Origin: Leptolyngbyales cyanobacterium
GTDB lineage: Bacteria > Cyanobacteriota > Cyanobacteriia > Leptolyngbyales > Leptolyngbyaceae
NCBI GenBank assembly: GCA_038227635.1
Contig: JBBRPT010000006.1
Span: 1-64,000, forward strand
Length of the DNA: 64,000 bases
Reading direction: 5' to 3'
The translations under genes and the position numbers were made by a program. The notes under the pieces are model-generated. The model was not told the DNA's origin. It made no database searches and worked only from the letters and a program-made list of their open reading frames with translations. Positions 5,527 through 64,000 of the stretch are shown here, one piece after another (position 1 is the first letter of the stretch; the number at the start of each line of letters is the position of its first letter).

Positions 5527-6011
5527 ACAATCTGACATTTAATACCATAGCTTTCTAACAAATTGCATGTCTCGTGATCGGTAATGTTGGTGTCGCTGAG
5601 TTCGAGGCTATAGAAATTTACGACATCGGCATCAAAGTAAGGTCCTGCGTGCCAGGTGTCTACTCCTAACTTAATGAAGCAGTTGCCGGGGATACGAAAC
5701 GCTTTCAAACTTTCTAAATCAGGATGATCGTTTGCCCCGATCGCTACTGCCATCAGCCATTCTTTTCCCTCAAGAGAGCCTAGACATTGAGTGCATTGTC
5801 GATGACGAGTGATGTGATGAAACATGCGACCTCGATCGTGCAATCGCATGATATAAAATCGAGGAATACCATTTTGAAGCTGTAGTTGAGCGTCGTGCTG
5901 ATCATAGGCTTTGCCGTCATCTGAAGCGCTGATTAATTGACCATACCGCTGGAATCCTTCAGGGGTAATCAGATCTGCTTGAAGCGATTGCAGGGAGTAA
6001 GTATCCGTCAT
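5523..6011 (-). CDS. ureidoglycolate lyase (AllA)-family protein
   Basis: 162 aa. By eye it aligns to the AllA pattern: PEGFQRYGQLI; TRHRQCTQCLGSLEGKEWLMAVA (compare ERHPLGTQAF..VVVA); HPDLESLKAFRIPG....VDTWH. Confidence 0.6.
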   Translation of the reverse strand: MTDTYSLQSLQADLITPEGFQRYGQLISASDDGKAYDQHDAQLQLQNGIPRFYIMRLHDRGRMFHHITRHRQCTQCLGSLEGKEWLMAVAIGANDHPDLESLKAFRIPGNCFIKLGVDTWHAGPYFDADVVNFYSLELSDTNITDHETCNLLESYGIKCQIV

Positions 6012-6095
6012 CAGAACCCGTCTCTAGGAAGACGTTGCTACAGCACCTTCTTTGTAGCATTGTTGGTGCTTCATGCGTCTAAAAGGACAGGTTTT

Positions 6096-6449
6096 ATGGC
6101 TAGCGTTCGTTCAGTTTTTAATCATCTTCGTCAAATCGTTGTTTCTACCTTGTTAATGGGTCTGCTGCTTTTCGCGATCGCCCCGGCAGCTCAAGCTGAG
6201 TATGCACCCGGTGCGCCTGAAAATCCTAGTGAAAAGCAAAAAACTCTCTACGAAGGCAAGCGCAATGTCGTCAACAGTCCAGGTGAACCTGCAAAAGCCA
6301 ATCTATCGACAAACGCTAATACATCGAGTGCATCAAGTCGAACTTCAGAGACAGTAAAGGCTAATGGTCAAGATCAGGCTGAAACTGCGATCGACAAATT
6401 GGTCAATAGAGTAGAAGCTACCTTTGACAACTTTAAGCAGCAGGATTAA
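6096..6449 (+). CDS. small secreted protein, unknown function
   Basis: The internal ATG at 6096 gives MASVRSVFNHLRQIVVSTLLMGLLLFAIAPAAQA/EY, a classic signal peptide with an AxA site. The upstream part of the track ORF overlaps the convergent gene and is unlikely to be coding. Confidence 0.55.
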   Translation: MASVRSVFNHLRQIVVSTLLMGLLLFAIAPAAQAEYAPGAPENPSEKQKTLYEGKRNVVNSPGEPAKANLSTNANTSSASSRTSETVKANGQDQAETAIDKLVNRVEATFDNFKQQD

Positions 6450-7099
6450 TGATGGACAGGGTGCTGACCGTAGAACGGAAGCACTTCTGACCAGTCGGAA
6501 CGGTGGTCTTGTTGCCATTGCAGGTGAGCAAGTTTAAGACTCGTAGTGACTTGCTCACCTTGCTCAGCTTTTGCCTCAATTAATTGGTAGGGCGTGTCCC
6601 AAGTTGAAAGAATCTGCTGCCACGCCTCATAGATGAGCACGGCATCCGGTAAAAGAGCGGTCAACCCAACTGAAGAATTTTGATAAATGGCAGCATATAG
6701 CTCTCCGCGCTGGGCGGGCATTTGAACAGCGATCGTGCCTTCATGCTCAGAGTGAGCGATCGCCGCCAAGCTTGACACCCCAAATAACGGAATCTGCAAT
6801 TGCTGCGCTAAAGTTCTCGCGGTTACGACTCCGATTCGCGTTCCGGTGAAGCCTCCAGGTCCGGTGGCGACAGCGATAAACGCCAGATCCGCCCAGGATT
6901 GAGGCTTTAAAAAATCGGATAGCGATGAGTGAAGATGGGTTGACAAATCGCGTCCTAATTTCCAGACTTGGTGGCGATCGTCGCCTGCAAAGTTATCGAT
7001 CGCTAAGCCTAAATCAGGACTGCTGGTGTGAAGGGCGATTCCGTAGGTTGATTCGAGATTCGACAATGGAGTTATTAACCTGACCGATTTGCCATTCAT
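6446..7099 (-). CDS. tsaB: tRNA t6A37 threonylcarbamoyltransferase complex subunit TsaB (YeaZ)
   Basis: 217 aa with ALHTSSPDLGLAI and VATGPGGFTGTRIGVVTARTLAQQLQIPLFGVSSL, the hallmark TsaB/YeaZ motifs. Confidence 0.85.
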   Translation of the reverse strand: MNGKSVRLITPLSNLESTYGIALHTSSPDLGLAIDNFAGDDRHQVWKLGRDLSTHLHSSLSDFLKPQSWADLAFIAVATGPGGFTGTRIGVVTARTLAQQLQIPLFGVSSLAAIAHSEHEGTIAVQMPAQRGELYAAIYQNSSVGLTALLPDAVLIYEAWQQILSTWDTPYQLIEAKAEQGEQVTTSLKLAHLQWQQDHRSDWSEVLPFYGQHPVHH

Positions 7100-19020: not shown

Positions 19021-19034
19021 GTAGTCGTCGTTAC
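19021..19034 (+). promoter_or_regulatory. candidate NtcA-binding site upstream of glnB
   Basis: GTAgtcgtcgtTAC matches GTA-N8-TAC, 75 nt upstream of the glnB start. I did not find a clean TAN3T box at the canonical 22-nt spacing. Confidence 0.35.
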
Positions 19035-19060: not shown

Positions 19061-19447
<387 letters not shown>

Positions 19448-55361: not shown

Positions 55362-55908
<547 letters not shown>

Positions 55909-56120: not shown

Positions 56121-57254
56121 TCACAGCAAAGATTGGAGTTGCTGGAGGTCTGCCAATGCAGCTACTAATGCAGTTTGACGGATCTCTGAAGAGAGTTCAG
56201 GATGCTTCACAACATAGGAAATCTGGGTCTGTAACTGATCTAACCCTATTCTGAGGTCGGGCATTTCGTCCTTATGGACAGGACAGAATGCCGCAGGTAG
56301 GTGAGTATCGTGATCAATAGAGGTTGCCAACACTTGCTCAATGTTTAGCCCCAACTGCTGAAGGGTTCGCTGAAGGGTTTCGATCACGCCATGCATCTCG
56401 ATCGGATCAAACACGCGCAAAATGCTGGTCTGAGTAACAATCCCTAAGTTTTGCCCCCAGTTCCAAGACACTACTAATCGTCGCACTTGGCGGTCTGCCA
56501 TCACTTGGTGAGCCGTCCAAAGAGAGTCTTCAGGACTCAGCACAAATAGCGGCGTACTCATCACCGTTTGAGCGAGAGTTTTGCGAACATCCAATCCAAG
56601 TGCCTGAAAATGAACGATATCCCGTTCGGTGACAATGCCAACAGGCTGTTGAACCAAATCGTCTGGGTTTGACGGTTCAACAATGACGATACAGCTAATT
56701 TGATGCGTCGCCATCAATTCAGTTAATTGCACAATAGGCGTGTTGGGTCGTGCCACAATCACCTGTTTGGTCATGACCTCGGCAACTCGTCGGATTTTGA
56801 GGAGGTTTGTGGGTCGCAGAATGTGGCGAATGCTCTCGATCGAGACGACTCCAATCAAACGCTGCTGATCATTGGCGATCACCAAATGACGAATGCGATG
56901 GCGACGAAACAGAAACAATGCCGCAAAGATATCGTGTAATGCCTGTTCAGACATTGAGAGCACGGGATGGTGCATTACCTCACAAATTTTTGTAGTGTGA
57001 AGGTCAGTGCCAACAGCAGTCAACTGCACCAAGTCGCGCTCGGTAAAAATGCCCTGTAGTGTTTCGCCCTGCATGACTAATACACAACTCGATCGCGCAC
57101 CATGAAGAGGATCAGTGCGGTAAATCTGTGCCGTTTCATTCATCAAACTCACTACGTCCACCAAGCAGGCATCGGGGGAGACGATTAGGGGATGACGATC
57201 GATCGCTTCAGCGAGAGGAGGAGTGCCTACTGAATAGTCGAAACCCACGGTCAT
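56121..57254 (-). CDS. CBS-domain protein (two CBS pairs) with C-terminal helical extension
   Basis: Four CBS-like units occur (..VVSLMNE...VLVM..L.GIFTERDLV.., ..HHPVLSM..RHLVIAN..LIGVVSIESI.., ..VMTKQVIVA..ISCIVIV..PVGIVTERDIV.., ..VMSTPLFVL..VRRLVVS..LGIVTQTSIL). Confidence 0.8.
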   Translation of the reverse strand: MTVGFDYSVGTPPLAEAIDRHPLIVSPDACLVDVVSLMNETAQIYRTDPLHGARSSCVLVMQGETLQGIFTERDLVQLTAVGTDLHTTKICEVMHHPVLSMSEQALHDIFAALFLFRRHRIRHLVIANDQQRLIGVVSIESIRHILRPTNLLKIRRVAEVMTKQVIVARPNTPIVQLTELMATHQISCIVIVEPSNPDDLVQQPVGIVTERDIVHFQALGLDVRKTLAQTVMSTPLFVLSPEDSLWTAHQVMADRQVRRLVVSWNWGQNLGIVTQTSILRVFDPIEMHGVIETLQRTLQQLGLNIEQVLATSIDHDTHLPAAFCPVHKDEMPDLRIGLDQLQTQISYVVKHPELSSEIRQTALVAALADLQQLQSLL

Positions 57255-57358: not shown

Positions 57359-57772
57359 CTAAACTTTTGGAGTGGACAAATCTGTCTGAGGAGGTGATTC
57401 TAACCCTTTGAGTCTGGGAGTGCGTCCATAGAGGCGATCGAGCACCCGTTTGATCGAGATGCGCTGCCATTGCTGTCCACGCTTGGTGCTGTAGCCCTGC
57501 CGATTTAGCCAGTCTGCCACTTGCTGAAGCGACTTGCCTGACTTGTGATGACGGCGGATTAAATCAATGATCTGCTGCTCGGTGGGGTCTTCGATTAGTT
57601 CACCGTCGAGCGATCGCTGCCCAAACGCAGGTGAGCCATAGCCGACATAGCCTCCCTGAGCCGCTTTCTCTTTGCGCCCTTGCTCTAATCGTTCCCACAC
57701 CTCACGATCTTGAAAATTTTCGCCCATGTGTTTGTGCTGTAGGTCACCTGACTCTAAGCATATCTCTACCAA
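57359..57772 (-). pseudogene. fragment of a serine-recombinase 'Recombinase' domain protein (catalytic domain missing)
   Basis: GGYVGYGSPAFGQR...DPTEQQIIDLIRRHHKSGKSLQQVADWLNRQGYSTKRGQQWQRISIKRVL matches the DNA-binding Recombinase domain pattern. There is no resolvase N-domain, and it abuts the next gene. Confidence 0.55.
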
Positions 57773-57793: not shown

Positions 57794-58315
57794 TTAATGA
57801 ACAAAAGTCTTGAGGAGGGATTTAGCTCGATCGATGTCCTGTGAGGTTCCTTCCACAATCAGCAAAACACGGCCGCTAGAAATCTGCTGACTGTAGGCTT
57901 TGGCTTGCTCTGAGGTCAGCCCTAAACCAATAAGTGCGCCCGTCAATCCACCCGCAGCCGTGCCAATCCCGCCGCTTAGTAGGACAAAGGCGATCGCAGA
58001 CGATAGCACCAGCGAACCCACGCCCGGCAGGGCAATCAACCCAGCGCCTAACAACAACCCAGTTACGCCGCCTGCAAGATTGCCGATTAAGAGTCCTTTC
58101 TTGAGTCCTGTTGCGGTGCCTGTCACTGCTCCATAAGCATCAGCAGGGAGTTTAGGGAACGTTGGGTAATTCTCGTCTAGTCCGTGACCCAGTAAGAAAA
58201 TCTGCGCGATCGACAAGCCCGACAGAACGAGGTGGTCGAACGCTTGTCCTGCCGCTTCACGACTAGAAAACGTTTTGATCACCTGTCTATGCTGGGTTAG
58301 AACAGTGTTTAACAT
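57794..58315 (-). CDS. membrane protein with general-stress (GSP17M/DUF1269-like) end domains and Gly-zipper TM region
   Basis: The N-terminus is VIKTFSSREAAGQAFDHLVLSGLS. The central region is G/A/L-rich (GLLIGNLAGGVTGLLLGAGLIALPGVG). The C-terminus is SEQAKAYSQQISSGRVLLIVEG. Confidence 0.45.
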   Translation of the reverse strand: MLNTVLTQHRQVIKTFSSREAAGQAFDHLVLSGLSIAQIFLLGHGLDENYPTFPKLPADAYGAVTGTATGLKKGLLIGNLAGGVTGLLLGAGLIALPGVGSLVLSSAIAFVLLSGGIGTAAGGLTGALIGLGLTSEQAKAYSQQISSGRVLLIVEGTSQDIDRAKSLLKTFVH

Positions 58316-58498
58316 TAGCTGATTCTTAGAAATTAGGTTTATTCTGTATTTTTCACTACCATTTTACCTATTTCTTTAACAAAAAAAGGGCAATTTGGTA
58401 AGTGTCAGAAAATTTTGACAAAAAAACGATCGCAGGTCAGGAGTAGCTAACCCACGATCGTACCAAAACAGAAAACCCTAATTTTGGCGGTTTGATGT

Positions 58499-58822
58499 CT
58501 ACCGCCGAGGCGCATACATGATGACTAAAACGCCTAGAAGTGCCAGCCATGCCCCCAACCAGTCGTATTTATCGGGTGCAGTTTTCTCGACAACCCAGCC
58601 CCACAGCAGCGACAGTACGATAAATACGCCGCCGTAGGCTGCGTAGGCACGGCTAAAACTAGCGGGTTGCAGCGTTGGCAGCACGCCATAAATGGCGAGA
58701 ACAATGACTCCAATCAGGGCAAGCCAAGGGCTTTTCCCTTCGCGTAGCCACAGCCAGAATAGATAGCCGCCGCCAATCTCGCAGAATCCAGCCAGCACAA
58801 AAAAGAAGAGGGATTGAACCAT
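58499..58822 (-). CDS. ynfA: YnfA-family (UPF0060) small membrane protein
   Basis: 107 aa: [26 protein letters not shown]...[18 protein letters not shown]. Confidence 0.8.
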
Positions 58823-58824
58823 TT

Positions 58825-59220
58825 CTAAGGGCGTTGCTCACTGAGGGTAGCGGGTTCCTCGATCGTCAAGGCGGCTTCGTTTTCCTCGCTTGTCCGAATG
58901 CGAATCGCTCTGCTCACCGGAATCACGAACAATTTACCATCGCCAACGGTGTCTGTTCTTGCCGTTTTGACGATGGTATCGACTACGGCATCGGTGAGAT
59001 CGTCATTTACAACCATTTCAATTCTGATTTTGGGCACGAAATCAACAGTGAAGGGTTTACCTTCCATGTTCAGCAGTCCGAGAAAAGCCAATGGACGACC
59101 TTTTTGCCGCCCAAAGCCTTTTGCGCCTGTGACAGTCATGCCCTGAATTCCGAGTTTGACTAAAGCTTCCTTTACGGCATCCAGTTTATTGGGCTGGATA
59201 ATGGCAAGAATTAAATTCAT
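58825..59220 (-). CDS. PII-superfamily protein with atypical extended T-loop
   Basis: The ATG at 59220 gives [63 protein letters not shown]. The B-loop and C-terminal motifs are retained. The T-loop is about 6 aa longer, hydrophobic, and lacks the Ser49/Tyr51 context. Confidence 0.75.
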
Positions 59221-59280
59221 GATTACTGATAGCAATGGACAGATAGTTGAGGGTCGATGCAAGAGTGTGCTGAACTCTAA

Positions 59281-60843
59281 TTAATGTTTAGACGCATCTA
59301 CACGATCGCGCAAAGAATGACTCAAGTCAGCAGGCAAAAACAGAGGTTTACCTTTGAGCAAGCTGTCACCCACCAGATAAGCAAACCCAGCGACAAAGAA
59401 GGCGATCGAAATTCCGATCGCAGTCATTGAGTTAGTTTTTGCGCTTCCGGCTCCAGTCAGTCCATAGTAAAAGATGCCGCATACCATAAACAGATTTGCA
59501 CCTAAGCCTAATACGGGAATGGCGATCGTTTGAATTGGATTATGCTCTTCGTCTAGCAAGTGTTTTAGCGTTGCGATCAACGTCACCCCGCAGGTAATGC
59601 CGTAGAGCATAAACGTGCCGATGTTAGAGACGAGTGTGACGATCGTGACATTATCGACGCTCTGCACCGCATAAGCCCCAATCAAAGCTGACAGACCCGT
59701 CAGAAAGTAGATGCCGATGTGGGGCGTGTTGTAGCGACCATGCAAAAATCCAAACACGGCTGGCAATTCGCGATCACTGCCCATTGCATAACTAATCCGA
59801 ACCCCGGTTGACAGCGCCGAAAGTGCCGTCCCAACTAGCGCCATCACGACGGTGCTGGCGATCGTAATTTGCAACAGAAAGCCGTTACCGAACAATAAAG
59901 AGTCACCCAAAATCCTGGCAATATCCCCAATCGGCGCACCCGACGAGAATGCGGCGGCAAATCCAGTGACGGTCTTGCCATCTACGATCGCAGTATATTG
60001 ATCGCCAACGAAAAAGTTTGCAGCGAAATACTCAAAAAAGTAGCAGACACAGGCTTGAATGAACAGTGACAGAATTACACCTCTGGGAATATCCCGTCGA
60101 GGATTGACTGCCTCTCCTGCCATTGCCGTTGCAGATTCAAAACCAACGACTAGAAGAATGGCGATCGTGGCTTGATAAATCAACCCCAGCAAATCGTGAG
60201 GAATCACAACGCTAACTGCATTGGTGTGTTCATAGTTAACGTTGGGATGACCCAACCGATACAGAATCATCAACAACCCTAAAAACACCAGAGAAGTAAT
60301 TTGAACAATGTTGATGATAATATTGACGAGCGTAGATCCCGTTACGCCTATCATTGCGATGCTGCCTACTAGCCCTGCAAAGACAAAACAAATTAAGACT
60401 TTACTAAACCAGTCGGAGGCAAACCCAGGATTAAACAGTTGCCCAATGTAAGCGACCAACGTTCCCATAAAGCTAATCATGATACCGGGATATACCCAGT
60501 AGTAGAGGTGCGCTGCCCAACCCGTGACAAATTTTGCCAGACGAGCTAACCGAAAATGCTTATGCTCTTCTTTAGCTAAAATGGCTGCTTCGGCGTAATA
60601 GTAAGAACTACCCGCACCCGCCTCAGGATAAGCTTTGGAGAGTGTGGCATAGCAACTTGCTGTGAGTAGAGCAATGCAGGTTGCGAGAGCGATCGCTGCC
60701 CACATATTTTTGGCAGAGTCGGGAGGAGCTTGTAGTTGGTAGGTTGTCCACAAAAAAGCGCCTGGTGCAATCAACGCCATTGCGTTAATCGTAATCCCTA
60801 CCAATCCGAGCGTAGGTTTCAGTTCACTATTTGACTGAGCCAT
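59281..60843 (-). CDS. APC-superfamily permease (amino acid/polyamine/organocation type)
   Basis: The ATG at 60843 gives MAQSNSELKPTLGLVGITINAMALIAPGAFLW. About 12-13 TM helices. It ends 60 nt before the PII-like gene. Confidence 0.8.
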   Translation of the reverse strand: MAQSNSELKPTLGLVGITINAMALIAPGAFLWTTYQLQAPPDSAKNMWAAIALATCIALLTASCYATLSKAYPEAGAGSSYYYAEAAILAKEEHKHFRLARLAKFVTGWAAHLYYWVYPGIMISFMGTLVAYIGQLFNPGFASDWFSKVLICFVFAGLVGSIAMIGVTGSTLVNIIINIVQITSLVFLGLLMILYRLGHPNVNYEHTNAVSVVIPHDLLGLIYQATIAILLVVGFESATAMAGEAVNPRRDIPRGVILSLFIQACVCYFFEYFAANFFVGDQYTAIVDGKTVTGFAAAFSSGAPIGDIARILGDSLLFGNGFLLQITIASTVVMALVGTALSALSTGVRISYAMGSDRELPAVFGFLHGRYNTPHIGIYFLTGLSALIGAYAVQSVDNVTIVTLVSNIGTFMLYGITCGVTLIATLKHLLDEEHNPIQTIAIPVLGLGANLFMVCGIFYYGLTGAGSAKTNSMTAIGISIAFFVAGFAYLVGDSLLKGKPLFLPADLSHSLRDRVDASKH

Positions 60844-61062
60844 TATGTTGTTACATCCCTCGGTATTGCGACCACTATTCTCAATGGCAGAGACTAATAG
60901 ATCTGTATTCCACAACACAAATATTTGCTCGGTCTACTGTACAAATTTCGTGAAACTATTGCCACCTATAGACTTAGCAGTGACGTCAATTTCGCTCCAG
61001 ACATTTTCTACCTGCTGTCTCTAGAGTGTTTTGCACAGGTTTTTTGTTTTTTATCCTGCACT

Positions 61063-61104
61063 GTAGTCTCTGATACAAATGTTTTGATTCCCTATTCTTA
61101 CTAT
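61063..61104 (+). promoter_or_regulatory. candidate NtcA-activated (class II) promoter facing ppk2/glnN
   Basis: GTAgtctctgaTAC (61063..61076), then exactly 22 nt, then TACTAT (61099..61104, fits TAN3T). This is the canonical GTAN8TAC-N22-TAN3T architecture, about 150 nt upstream of ppk2. Confidence 0.45.
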
Positions 61105-61252
61105 TAAGCTGAAACGGACAACCTTTGGTGAGATTTAGACTTGACTCTAGAAGACCTCTGCTGGCTCTAATTGTTACATCCGTCGAAGAGGTTTTCGAGT
61201 TAGGGTTCTGTATGATTTGTATCACAGTCATTTCAGTCACCGGAGAACAACT

Positions 61253-62212
61253 ATGGAATCCGACCTTGTGAATGGAGAGGTTTCTGCAGCTACGATCGCA
61301 GAACTCCTCACTTCAGAATCCGCCAATCTGACCACAAAGAAAAAAAAGAAGAAAGGTAAGAAACACAAAAAAGCCAAACTCTCCTCTACTCCGCCACCCA
61401 TGACTTATTTACCCGCTTCTGAGCAGGAAAGCAGGTCTAAGTTCTCCAGCAAAGACTACGAGAAAGAACTCGCCCGACTGCAAGTAGAACTGGTGAAAAT
61501 GCAGTATTGGGCAAAACATACAGGCACCCGAATTGTCATCTTGTTTGAAGGTCGCGATGCCGCCGGGAAAGGCGGCACGATTAAGCGGATTACGGAGCCG
61601 TTAAATCCGCGCGGCTGTCGAGTCGTCGCTTTGGGAACCCCGAGCGATCGTGAAAAAACTGAATGGTACTTTCAGCGCTATGTGCCTCATCTACCAGCAG
61701 CAGGCGAAATTGTCTGCTTCGACCGCAGTTGGTATAACCGCGCTGGGGTCGAGCATGTGATGGGGTTTTGCACCGATGAACAGTATCAGGAATTTATGCA
61801 AACCTGCCCCGAATTTGAGCGAATGCTGGTTAGGTCTGGCATCATTTTGCTGAAGTATTGGTTTTCTGTCAGCGATGACGAGCAAGAGCGGCGGTTTCAA
61901 TCCCGCACGATCGATCCCGCCCGTCGTTGGAAACTCAGCCCGATGGATTTGGAGTCACGCGATCGCTGGGTGGAATATTCCAAAGCCAAGGACACGATGC
62001 TTTCTCACACCAATATTCCTGAAGCACCCTGGTTTACCGTTGAAGCCGACGACAAAAAACGCGCTCGCCTCAACTGCATCCGTCACTTTCTCAGCAAGAT
62101 TCCCTATGTGGATATGACTCCAGAACCGCTAGAACTGCCGCCGCGAAAGTCTGCTCATGATTATGTGCGACCCCCGCGCAACGAACAGTTCTTCGTCCCA
62201 CAAGTCTATTGA
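61253..62212 (+). CDS. ppk2: polyphosphate kinase 2 (PPK2)
   Basis: Contains FEGRDAAGKGGTIKRI (Walker A), YFQRYVPHLPAAGEIVCFDRSWYNRAGVE and the lid (RWKLSPMDLESR). There is an N-terminal Lys-rich extension (KKKKKKGKKHKKAK). Confidence 0.9.
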   Translation: MESDLVNGEVSAATIAELLTSESANLTTKKKKKKGKKHKKAKLSSTPPPMTYLPASEQESRSKFSSKDYEKELARLQVELVKMQYWAKHTGTRIVILFEGRDAAGKGGTIKRITEPLNPRGCRVVALGTPSDREKTEWYFQRYVPHLPAAGEIVCFDRSWYNRAGVEHVMGFCTDEQYQEFMQTCPEFERMLVRSGIILLKYWFSVSDDEQERRFQSRTIDPARRWKLSPMDLESRDRWVEYSKAKDTMLSHTNIPEAPWFTVEADDKKRARLNCIRHFLSKIPYVDMTPEPLELPPRKSAHDYVRPPRNEQFFVPQVY

Positions 62213-62290: not shown

Positions 62291-64000
62291 ATGAGTGGTA
62301 ATGAACTTCGTTTTCAGGCAATTTGTCAGATCACCGATCGTGAAAAGCTTCCTCCCAAAACGCCCAGCCGTCTAGAGGAACTCTGGGCAACCGACGTATT
62401 TACCCTGGGCAAAATGCAGGCTTGTTTGCCCAAAGATGTCTTCAAGTCGATCAAGAACACTATTCAGACGGGTGGAAAGCTGGATGTGTCTGTTGCCGGA
62501 ACCGTTGCCGCAGCGATGAAAGACTGGGCGATTTCTAAGGGCGCACTGTATTACGCTCACGTCTTCTACCCGATGACCAACATCACCGCCGAAAAGCACG
62601 ATGGCTTTATCTCGGTGCAAAGTGACGGCTCGGCGATGACCGAGTTCGCTGGCAAAGTGCTGGTGCAAGGCGAGCCGGATGGGTCATCGTTTCCCAATGG
62701 CGGCATTCGCTCTACGTTTGAAGCGCGGGGCTACACCGCGTGGGATGTCACCAGTCCTGCCTATGTGATGGAAACCGATAACGGGGTGACGTTGTGCATT
62801 CCCACGGTGTTCATTTCTTGGACCGGGGAAGCACTAGACAAAAAAACGCCCTTGCTGCGATCGAATGCGGCGATGAGCAAAGCGGCAACCCGACTACTCA
62901 AACTGTTGGGACATTCAGACGTGGCGACCGTCAATTCTAGCTGTGGTGCCGAGCAAGAATATTTCTTAGTCGATGCCCATTTTGCCCACAGCCGCCCGGA
63001 TATCTTGTTGACAGGCAGAACCTTGTTTGGGCGACCTGCTGCCAAAGGGCAACAGTTTGATGATCACTATTTTGGTGCGATTCCAGAGCGCGTTCAGGTC
63101 TTCATGCAAGATGTGGAAGAGCGGATGTATCGACTGGGGATTCCGGCAAAAACTCGGCATAACGAAGTGGCTCCTGGTCAGTTTGAGCTTGCTCCATTTT
63201 TTGAAGCGGCAAACGTGGCGAGTGACCACCAGCAGATGACGATGACCATTCTCAAGAACACGGCTAAGAAACATGGCTTCGTCTGCCTATTGCACGAAAA
63301 GCCGTTTGCAGGCATCAACGGGTCTGGGAAGCACGTCAACTGGTCGGTGGGCAATGCGACTCAAGGCAATCTGCTCGATCCGGGTGATACTCCCCACACC
63401 AATCTGCAATTTTTGCTGTTTTGCGGAGCGGTGATTCGTGGAGTTCACAAATATGGACCTTTGCTGCGAGCCGTGGTTGCGACTGCAAGTAACGATCATC
63501 GACTCGGTGCCAATGAAGCCCCGCCTGCAATCATCTCAGTCTATCTGGGCAGCCAGCTCGAAGATGTGTTTGAGCAAATTAAGCAGGGAGAGGTGAAAAG
63601 CTCGGCTCACGCGGGTGTGATGAGTTTGGGTGTGCTGACCTTGCCAGAGTTTCCTAAAGATCCAGGCGATCGCAACCGCACTTCACCCTTTGCTTTCACG
63701 GGCAACCGCTTTGAATTCCGGGCAGTTGGGTCGAATCAATCGGTTTCTGGTCCGCTGGTCGCAATGAACACGATTTTGACCGATTCGCTGACCTGGGTGG
63801 CTGACGAGTTAGAAGCTGAACTGGCAAAAGGGCTGTCGTTAGAAGATGCTGCCTTTACCGTGCTGAAAGAAGTCATGGAGGATCACAGCGCTGTTGTCTT
63901 TGGTGGCAATGGTTACTCCGAAGCGTGGCACAAAATGGCAGTTGAGGAACGCGGGCTGTTGAACCTACCCACGACCGCAGACGCGTTGCCCATTTTGAAA
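62291..64000 (+). CDS. glnN: type III glutamine synthetase GlnN, 5' partial (runs off window end)
   Basis: It is absent from the ORF track because there is no stop within the window. From ATG 62291 the frame is open for 570 codons. The product includes ..[33 protein letters not shown].., [43 protein letters not shown] and [13 protein letters not shown]. Confidence 0.9.

Follow-up and report, generated by a model that had tools for sequence, protein, structure and literature searches.

What is a second PII protein for in a cyanobacterium that already encodes a canonical one? Few signalling proteins are as widespread as PII, and, to our knowledge, each new class of PII target has taught something about the way in which one small trimer senses 2-oxoglutarate and ATP/ADP and controls very different partners. 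The question is raised by a 64,000-nucleotide stretch of a Leptolyngbyales cyanobacterium (contig JBBRPT010000006.1, positions 1 to 64,000; referred to here as the window), which carries an ordinary glnB and also a gene for a 131-residue PII paralog, named PIIx here, lodged between the genes for an APC permease and for YnfA. An initial annotation of this DNA had proposed that the paralog is a dedicated PII-type regulator of the permease. The present analysis points the same way: PIIx is probably the dedicated regulator of the adjacent permease, because its gene always follows that one permease gene. The genes concerned are the following.

59281-60843, minus strand: APC permease, 520 amino acids, Pfam AA_permease_2 with E 2.9e-16
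58825-59220, minus strand: PIIx, 131 amino acids, in an open reading frame at 58825-59262 with the ATG at 59220 (MNLILAIIQ...)
58499-58822, minus strand: ynfA (YnfA/UPF0060), 107 amino acids, Pfam UPF0060 with E 1.2e-45
19109-19447, plus strand: canonical glnB, an ordinary cyanobacterial GlnB in the same window

The three genes of the cassette stand head to tail on the minus strand, in the order permease, PIIx, ynfA, and are separated by 60 nt (59221-59280) and 2 nt (58823-58824). The coordinates of the open reading frames and the Pfam matches of all three genes agree with the order and gaps that had been reported initially. The open reading frame of the permease spans 59281-60918, up to a GTG at 60918; its true start is taken to be the ATG at 60843, because all orthologs align from residue 1 at that ATG. 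The upstream end of the frame is occupied by an NtcA-like site (60905-60918). The gaps within the unit are short, and no convincing terminator was found before the end of ynfA. Beyond that gene lies a hairpin that may close the three-gene unit and that is terminator-like by consensus match only.

58426-58461, minus strand: terminator-like hairpin with a T-run, a 15-pair stem followed by TTTTTTGTCA

The first step is to decide what kind of protein PIIx is. It matches the Pfam family P-II (PF00543) with E 6.5e-30 and 103.9 bits, against a cutoff of 25, over profile positions 1-102 of 102. Its top match among PDB sequences is E. coli GlnB (3e-34), followed by the PII chain 2eg1, GlnZ, GlnK and S. 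elongatus PII; the PII chains of PDB 9p1x are also among these matches. The AlphaFold2 (AF2) model has a core confidence (predicted local distance difference test, pLDDT) of 85-93 and the element order beta-alpha-beta-beta-alpha-beta, with strands at residues 2-8, 29-40, 58-71 and 95-101 and helices at 10-22 and 73-87, which corresponds to a ferredoxin-like double beta-alpha-beta. With this model, every match among the top 50 from Foldseek was GlnB, GlnK or GlnZ, with template modelling (TM) scores of 0.74-0.89 normalised to the target. No SbtB chain occurred among the 41 PDB sequence matches or the top 50 fold matches, and no sbtA gene lies near PIIx in the window. Since canonical PIIs lead the PDB sequence matches, and since GlnB, GlnK and GlnZ account for every one of the top fold matches, PIIx is a true PII with a canonical core, not a distant SbtB-type PII-like protein. 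The earlier term "PII-like" was thus right as to membership in the PII family but not as to a distant standing within it, since Pfam, the fold and the contact residues all indicate a canonical core.

The fold-defining segments that had been named at the outset (GFGRQKG, GDGKLFV and RIRTSE) were all found. In canonical PII numbering, which is used for residue changes unless PIIx residue numbers are given, PIIx retains G27-M-T29, G35-F-G-R-Q-K-G41 (including Q39), K58 (K64 in PIIx), the GDGK motif G87-K90, and R101 and R103 of the RxR motif. In the alignment, these residues are invariant or nearly so across the PIIx clade. With reference to PII structures such as 2XUL, we take G27-T29, G35-G41, K58, G87-K90, R101 and R103 to be the contacts for ATP/ADP and for Mg-ATP/2-oxoglutarate, and both pockets are predicted from these residues to be kept. 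PIIx is presumably trimeric as well, and it would bind these ligands. It is 51% identical to the GlnB of the window and 58-60% identical to E. coli GlnB.

The changes that set PIIx apart are found elsewhere. Nearly all changes specific to the clade are in the T-loop, the element with which every characterised PII binds its targets, and there is an addition at the C-terminus.

59050-59097, minus strand: remodelled T-loop, PIIx residues 42-57
59065-59082, minus strand: six-residue insertion LGLLNM, PIIx residues 47-52
58828-58866, minus strand: clade-specific C-terminal extension, PIIx residues 119-131

The segment from GRQKG to the conserved lysine is 19 residues long in the clade, whereas each of the 120 canonical representatives measured has 13. 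The same six-residue gap appears in the HMMER alignments to E. coli GlnB and to each of two other PII chains from the PDB, and MAFFT agrees. A loop about six residues longer than usual had been claimed from the letters, and these results show that it is not an alignment artefact; likewise, the T-loop of the canonical GlnB at 19109-19447 reads as it had been quoted for comparison. Relative to the 130 nearest canonical representatives, the T-loop changes are H42R, T43P, E44L, Y46F, the six added residues (LGLL[N/D]M), R47E, E50P and Y51F, and the alignment places a lysine at S49. E44, Y46, R47, E50 and Y51 are each 97-100% conserved among those 130 proteins, and all are replaced in the clade. 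The loop is, as had been described, hydrophobic, and with lysine in place of S49 and phenylalanine in place of Y51 it has no modifiable serine or tyrosine. We take S49 to be the cyanobacterial phosphorylation site, Y51 the uridylylation site and R47 the residue that plugs AmtB; B-loop E85, which is a threonine in PIIx, is presumably essential for binding NAGK. Canonical targets and modifications look lost in PIIx, because S49 has become lysine, Y51 phenylalanine and E85 threonine. Outside the T-loop, the clade differs from the same 130 representatives by K9Q, E32G, V33A, K60R and I91L. The C-terminal tail is acidic, conserved in the larger subclade (A, below), absent from canonical PII and predicted to be disordered (low pLDDT in the AF2 model).

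These features also bear on the sign of any effect on the permease. The loop is unusually hydrophobic for the surface of a soluble protein, PIIx lacks the Arg47 that plugs AmtB, and the conserved acidic tail could be a second interaction module. PIIx might be pictured from this as a positive or structural partner of the permease, either an activating subunit or a membrane-tethered sensor whose loop is inserted in the lipid interface and which signals the occupancy of the transporter to the cell. We consider such a role rather unlikely, given that every characterised PII-transporter pair known to us is inhibitory; sequence itself does not tell activation from inhibition.

Whether the long loop marks a lineage of its own was answered with an exhaustive HMMER search of 1.84 billion representatives at 50% identity. 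Only three clusters (P0241-P0243) retain the insertion, with scores of 158-180 bits. Below them stand two multi-domain matches and then only canonical PII, at no more than 122 bits and aligned with the six-residue gap, so that a gap in score splits the long-loop clusters from single-domain canonical PII. In neighbour-joining (NJ) bootstrap analysis, the long-loop proteins were monophyletic in 100 of 100 replicates, and in 95 of 100 when the T-loop columns were removed; they paired with cyanobacterial GlnB in at most 12 of 100. These trees, the phylogenetic check proposed in the initial annotation, place PIIx outside ordinary GlnB and GlnK, and they indicate a monophyletic clade that is not sister to cyanobacterial GlnB. 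Close PII matches from non-cyanobacterial sources (Pelistega, Binatia, Nitrospiria and others; loci L037-L084) were considered as possible members and rejected, as all have the 112-residue canonical form and no permease neighbour.

Two main subclades can be recognised. Subclade A (127-133 amino acids) occurs in Phormidesmis, Leptolyngbya, Microcoleus, Tychonema, Nostoc and Aphanocapsa; subclade B (125-130 amino acids) occurs in Pseudanabaena-like and other genomes and has a loop of the form PL[AE]FLGL[YQ][ND]... Among species genomes, a scan yielded 32 with a clade-A protein (L005-L035 and L039) and a single one, L036, with a subclade-B protein, and the closest PIIx among the fetched loci, at 98% identity, comes from a Phormidesmis metagenome-assembled genome (MAG). 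The new T-loop is nearly invariant over 30 clade-A loci from Leptolyngbya/Phormidesmis, Microcoleus/Tychonema and Nostoc, and it is kept in subclade B. The distribution is patchy, with about 33 species genomes and no standard model strain among them. The family is directly testable because it is present in named strains, among them Leptolyngbya sp. NIES-2104, Phormidesmis priestleyi ULC007, Microcoleus anatoxicus PTRS2 and Tychonema bourrellyi FEM_GT703. Two irregular cases were observed. Subclade-B locus L095 has two tandem long-T-loop PII genes after the permease (5964-6350 and 6613-7005; 128 and 130 amino acids), and two MAGs (L009 321-1878 and L039 38-1827) contain frameshifts that break up either the permease gene or the PII gene, which reflect assembly errors or pseudogenes.

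A patchy distribution of this kind, together with recombinase fragments 1-3 kb from the cassette, would also suit a redundant GlnB paralog that was gained with a mobile cassette and has no dedicated target. According to a 2019 review, some cyanobacteria do carry extra PII homologues of unknown function (PMC8042125). Nevertheless, redundancy is very unlikely here. A T-loop that has been rebuilt completely and still hardly varies points to strong selection for one particular new interface; residues for contacts of the NAGK, PipX and AmtB type and for modification have been lost, and the synteny with the permease is absolute.

This synteny supports the regulator reading. A tblastn search with the proteins of the window found a permease ortholog (85-94% identity) directly upstream of the PII gene, on the same strand, in 32/32 clade-A genomes. 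In subclade B, a permease of about 555-565 amino acids (58-67% identity) is followed by a long-loop PII in 5/5 independent loci (L036, L089, L090, L094 and L095), where the permeases were located via look-ups that started from the permease side. An AA_permease-family gene is thus the neighbour of a long-loop PII in 37/37 loci, with gaps of about 16-290 nt, and amtB is adjacent in none. The conserved linkage to an APC permease, which the initial annotation had asked to be checked, is therefore a property of both subclades.

The gene that follows PIIx could be an alternative target. YnfA is a four-helix SMR-like membrane protein with a full-length match above curated cutoffs (Pfam UPF0060, 154.6 bits against 24.9; NCBIfam equivalog, 151.7 bits against 114). 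In clade A, ynfA lies directly downstream in 28 of the 31 loci where this could be determined, 2-9 nt after the PIIx stop, which is tighter than the gap between permease and PIIx; this tight coupling of ynfA to a PII gene was previously unnoted. In subclade B, ynfA stays within a few kilobases in three of the five loci (convergent in L090, within 3-5 kb in L094 and L036). PIIx might thus regulate YnfA, alone or with the permease, its T-loop binding the SMR-like exporter and controlling the efflux of monovalent or organic cations. Tl+ mimics K+ and NH4+, so that a thallium(I) phenotype would suit a nitrogen sensor. Such a phenotype, affecting fitness and conserved in several bacteria, has been described for UPF0060 (bioRxiv 10.1101/072470), and YnfA is listed as a drug efflux transporter in Shigella (PMC9295541). 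YnfA is nevertheless an unlikely target: the gene is missing downstream in L006, L013 and L015 and within the flanks of L089 and L095, it is not co-transcribed with the PII gene in subclade B, and the permease is never missing.

The divergent neighbours of the cassette offer a further candidate.

61217-62212, plus strand: ppk2 (polyphosphate kinase 2), Pfam PPK2 with E 1.3e-106, divergent from the permease operon; its start is possibly the ATG at 61253
62291-64000, plus strand: glnN (GlnN, type III glutamine synthetase, GSIII), the first 570 amino acids, running off the end of the window; GSIII_N with E 2.9e-72 and Gln-synt_C with E 8.4e-20

That ppk2 and glnN are neighbours, as had been noted from the letters, is borne out by these Pfam matches. 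One or both genes stand divergently beside the cassette in L001 and in 11/32 clade-A genome loci. There is also a third PII paralog with a long T-loop, which is rare (119 amino acids, loop GHSLETLGLQGIKGGSHMVEF; L001 1-318 on the minus strand and L096 3622-3981). It is the last of three genes in a ppk2-glnN-PII operon in both loci, and L001 holds it together with the permease-linked paralog. No reported regulator of cyanobacterial GlnN is known to us. PIIx, or long-loop PIIs generally, could hence regulate GlnN and/or PPK2, as archaeal GlnK1 acts on glutamine synthetase, and the adjacency of the permease would then reflect a shared nitrogen-starvation island. This seems quite improbable, since about half of the loci with enough flank keep permease and PIIx without glnN nearby (Nostoc L028, several Microcoleus/Tychonema loci and all of subclade B), and since the glnN-linked paralog has a different loop sequence and is rare, with only 5 close relatives among 5.8 billion clusters.

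If the permease is the target, its identity matters. Both Pfam models, AA_permease_2 (59.9 bits) and AA_permease (46.2 bits), score above cutoff, and the AF2 model, with a predicted TM-score (pTM) of 0.82, has a LeuT fold of 12 transmembrane helices (TM1 to TM12). The structure matches GkApcT, AdiC, LAT1, KimA and NKCC1 about equally, at 12-18% identity (E 6e-12 to 1e-10 for GkApcT, AdiC and LAT1). The only PDB sequence match is to vacuolar CAT4 (1e-6), and no NCBIfam family claims the protein, the best scores being 24-69 bits against cutoffs of 557-800. TM6 carries VGFESATAMAGEAVNPRRDIP, which we take to be the classic APC signature of that helix, and TM1 carries IAPGAF at the position where most APC members presumably have G-[ST]-G. 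Taken together, the protein is a deep-branching member of the APC superfamily outside the characterised substrate subfamilies. Assignment of a substrate by homology was tried and rejected, as the fold matches are equidistant between carriers of amino acids, polyamines and K+/Cl- and there is no NCBIfam equivalog; the JGI label "basic amino acid/polyamine antiporter" is automatic and was not counted as evidence. Gene context points weakly, and with low confidence, to a basic amino acid, a guanidino compound or a polyamine.

Part of this context comes from elsewhere. PII-less orthologs of the permease (about 59% identity) occur in the non-cyanobacterial contigs L085 (5001-7720), L087 (5001-7814) and L092 (5001-7780), one of which is labelled Chloroflexi. 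There, a phosphoenolpyruvate (PEP) carboxylase gene lies divergently upstream, and a Ser/Thr kinase gene (Pkinase E 5.5e-55) lies directly downstream, followed by GOGAT; a DDAH/amidinotransferase-like gene is found 3-4 kb off in two of the three loci (L085 and L092). In those bacteria, the kinase may replace PII as the regulator of the permease. The presence of PII-less orthologs amid PEP carboxylase and GOGAT genes, with a kinase in the position of PIIx, suggests that this permease requires a regulator of its own with a link to nitrogen assimilation.

The upstream region of the cassette adds to the nitrogen context. A class II NtcA-activated promoter has GTA-N8-TAC about 22 nt upstream of a TAN3T-like -10 box, and the following elements were compared with it.

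60905-60918, minus strand: proximal NtcA-like site GTGTTGTGGAATAC, 5/6 consensus bases (GTG-N8-TAC), 75 nt upstream of the permease ATG
60877-60882, minus strand: -10-like hexamer GAGAAT, 22 nt downstream of the proximal site
61063-61076, no strand assigned: distal GTA-N8-TAC, the motif cited in the initial annotation

The distal motif exists as had been reported, but the TACTAT box that lies 22 nt downstream of it (61099-61104, plus strand) points toward ppk2-glnN and not toward the permease. Loci with ppk2 or glnN show the same arrangement. More plausibly, the distal site belongs to ppk2-glnN, and the permease is served by the second, proximal candidate site. Orthologs in Leptolyngbya/Phormidesmis have a GTA-N8-TAC that is perfect or has one mismatch at -73 to -82 (the perfect ones at -76 to -82), and orthologous loci have an xAxxAT box 22-24 nt downstream of the motif, toward the permease. 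In Microcoleus and Tychonema loci, perfect GTAT-N6-ATAC palindromes lie farther upstream of the permease, and a conserved block comes after them. NtcA-like sites with the correct spacing are thus kept upstream of the permease in most orthologous loci. The argument rests on this positional conservation; the window has 7 copies of the bare GTA-N8-TAC motif against 4.1 expected, which is no enrichment. A riboswitch or leader RNA upstream of the operon was also considered and rejected: Rfam gave nothing at gathering thresholds in the whole window and only noise (E 0.7-3.8) in 58300-61400.

Two further observations concern NtcA-type sites in the window. A perfect GTA-N8-TAC, GTAGTCGTCGTTAC, lies at 19021-19034, 75-88 nt upstream of the start of the canonical glnB at 19109, as would be expected for an NtcA-regulated glnB. 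The ppk2-glnN genes form a conserved pair behind a textbook NtcA-type promoter (GTA-N8-TAC, 22 nt, TACTAT). Expression of PPK2 together with GSIII, an ATP-dependent enzyme, would suggest that polyphosphate drives the regeneration of nucleotides when nitrogen runs out.

How might PIIx act? In the mechanism that we favour, nitrogen limitation would raise 2-oxoglutarate, and NtcA would activate permease-PIIx-ynfA from the site at -75 and the divergent ppk2-glnN from 61063-61076. A 2-oxoglutarate-bound PIIx trimer would hold its T-loop back, and the permease would import a nitrogen-containing substrate. Once nitrogen is replenished and 2-oxoglutarate falls, the long hydrophobic T-loop would extend and block transport by docking on, or inserting into, the cytoplasmic face of the permease. 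YnfA, as a small SMR-like exporter, would be a co-expressed accessory, maybe a relief valve through which the same cation, or a toxic analogue, is let out. In short, NtcA would induce both operons, and PIIx would sense 2-oxoglutarate, ATP and ADP and stop uptake by the permease when nitrogen returns; we give this reading a probability of roughly 0.55. It is favoured because synteny is absolute, change is concentrated in the target-binding loop, the new loop is near-invariant, the residues for canonical targets are lost and the context is one of nitrogen. GlnK-AmtB and SbtB-SbtA likewise use the T-loop on a transporter. A T-loop is also used on a transporter in PII-NrtBCD (PDB 8WM7, PMC10945777).

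Several points weigh against this mechanism. AF2 confidence is low in the T-loop of PIIx (pLDDT about 50-60), and the model does not inform on a docked conformation. The proximal NtcA-like site of the window has one mismatch to the consensus. The core changes K9Q and E32G are unexplained and could alter effector binding. Long-loop PIIs are not exclusively permease-linked, because the third paralog sits in a ppk2-glnN operon. When 37 PII-linked permease orthologs were compared with 10 from the lineage that has no PII gene in the sampled loci, no cytoplasmic docking patch emerged: the 34 discriminating positions are scattered, mostly over transmembrane helices, and the only difference in a cytoplasmic loop is a two-residue LL in cytoplasmic loop 5. 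Finally, AmtB and SbtA are trimers, matching the PII trimer. The characterised APC transporters known to us are monomers or dimers, and APC transporters are not known to be trimers. The symmetric 3:3 plug geometry may not transfer, because the APC partner is probably non-trimeric.

In its working, the PIIx-permease pair would resemble GlnK-AmtB and SbtB-SbtA, yet it would belong to neither. As with GlnK-AmtB, a PII paralog stands in an operon with a transporter, in a putatively nitrogen-regulated context, with the ATP/ADP/2-oxoglutarate pocket predicted to be kept and the T-loop as the obvious contact. The differences are that the partner, a LeuT-fold APC permease in place of an Amt/Rh channel, is not known to be trimeric; the transporter gene comes first; and the T-loop is six residues longer and hydrophobic, with glutamate for the plug residue R47 and phenylalanine for Y51. 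With SbtB-SbtA it shares the cyanobacterial host, a regulator gene immediately downstream of the transporter gene, a family-specific C-terminal extension and presumed cytoplasmic docking. Unlike SbtB, PIIx has a canonical PII core (51-60% identity to GlnB), its predicted effectors are ATP/ADP/2-oxoglutarate and not cAMP/AMP/c-di-AMP, and its tail has no CGPxGC. The nearest comparison within the organism is the canonical GlnB of the window, a type of protein that controls Amt1, NrtABCD and UrtABCDE. The two have the same fold, the same ligand-contact residues and an NtcA-type site upstream; however, PIIx is only 51% identical to it, is not its sister in trees, lacks S49, R47, Y51, E44 and E85, and is linked by its gene position to one putative target. 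PII-NG and PotN-type PII relatives are encoded beside cation-efflux or polyamine ABC transporters, and so also have a conserved non-Amt transporter neighbour; they involve different transporter classes and divergent PII-like sequences, whereas PIIx keeps the full canonical effector site.

Full-text searches of the literature found no description of a PII-APC permease gene pair, of this clade or of this T-loop, and a "valve plug" preprint (10.1101/2023.08.10.552651) does not mention APC or a permease. The chances appear evenly balanced that PIIx is the first PII dedicated to an APC (LeuT-fold) transporter, that its T-loop, six residues longer and hydrophobic, is a novel way of docking on a partner that is probably not a trimer, that the pair belongs to a nitrogen-scavenging island under NtcA control, together with an SMR-like exporter and a ppk2/GSIII operon, and that elsewhere the same permease has swapped PII for a Ser/Thr kinase. 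If so, it would show how a charged, modifiable T-loop can become a long, hydrophobic one that suits a new interface. Work on PIIx could reveal the substrate of an uncharacterised permease lineage that is tied to GS-GOGAT genes in at least two bacterial groups. Its reach is limited by the narrow, patchy distribution in a few dozen non-model cyanobacteria and by absence from the standard model cyanobacteria.

Some minor observations concern the surroundings. Near the subclade-B pair, a trio recurs that consists of YnfA, a 143-162-residue protein without a family and a histone-deacetylase-family gene (L036 1052-2851, L090 7502-9491 and L094 393-2374; PF00850 with E 1.9e-56 on the L094 copy). The trio could hint at the metabolism of acetylated amines or polyamines. 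In the window, recombinase gene fragments lie 1-3 kb past ynfA, at 55371-55556 (plus strand) and 57359-57772 (minus strand); one is an N-terminal resolvase-like peptide, and the other matches Pfam Recombinase (E 4.7e-7). They look like the scar of a mobile element, which fits the patchy distribution of the cassette. Also downstream of the cassette, both on the minus strand, are genes for a protein with several CBS domains (56121-57254; three matched stretches, E 3e-33) and for a glycine-rich membrane protein with a weakly YflT-like N-terminus (57794-58315).

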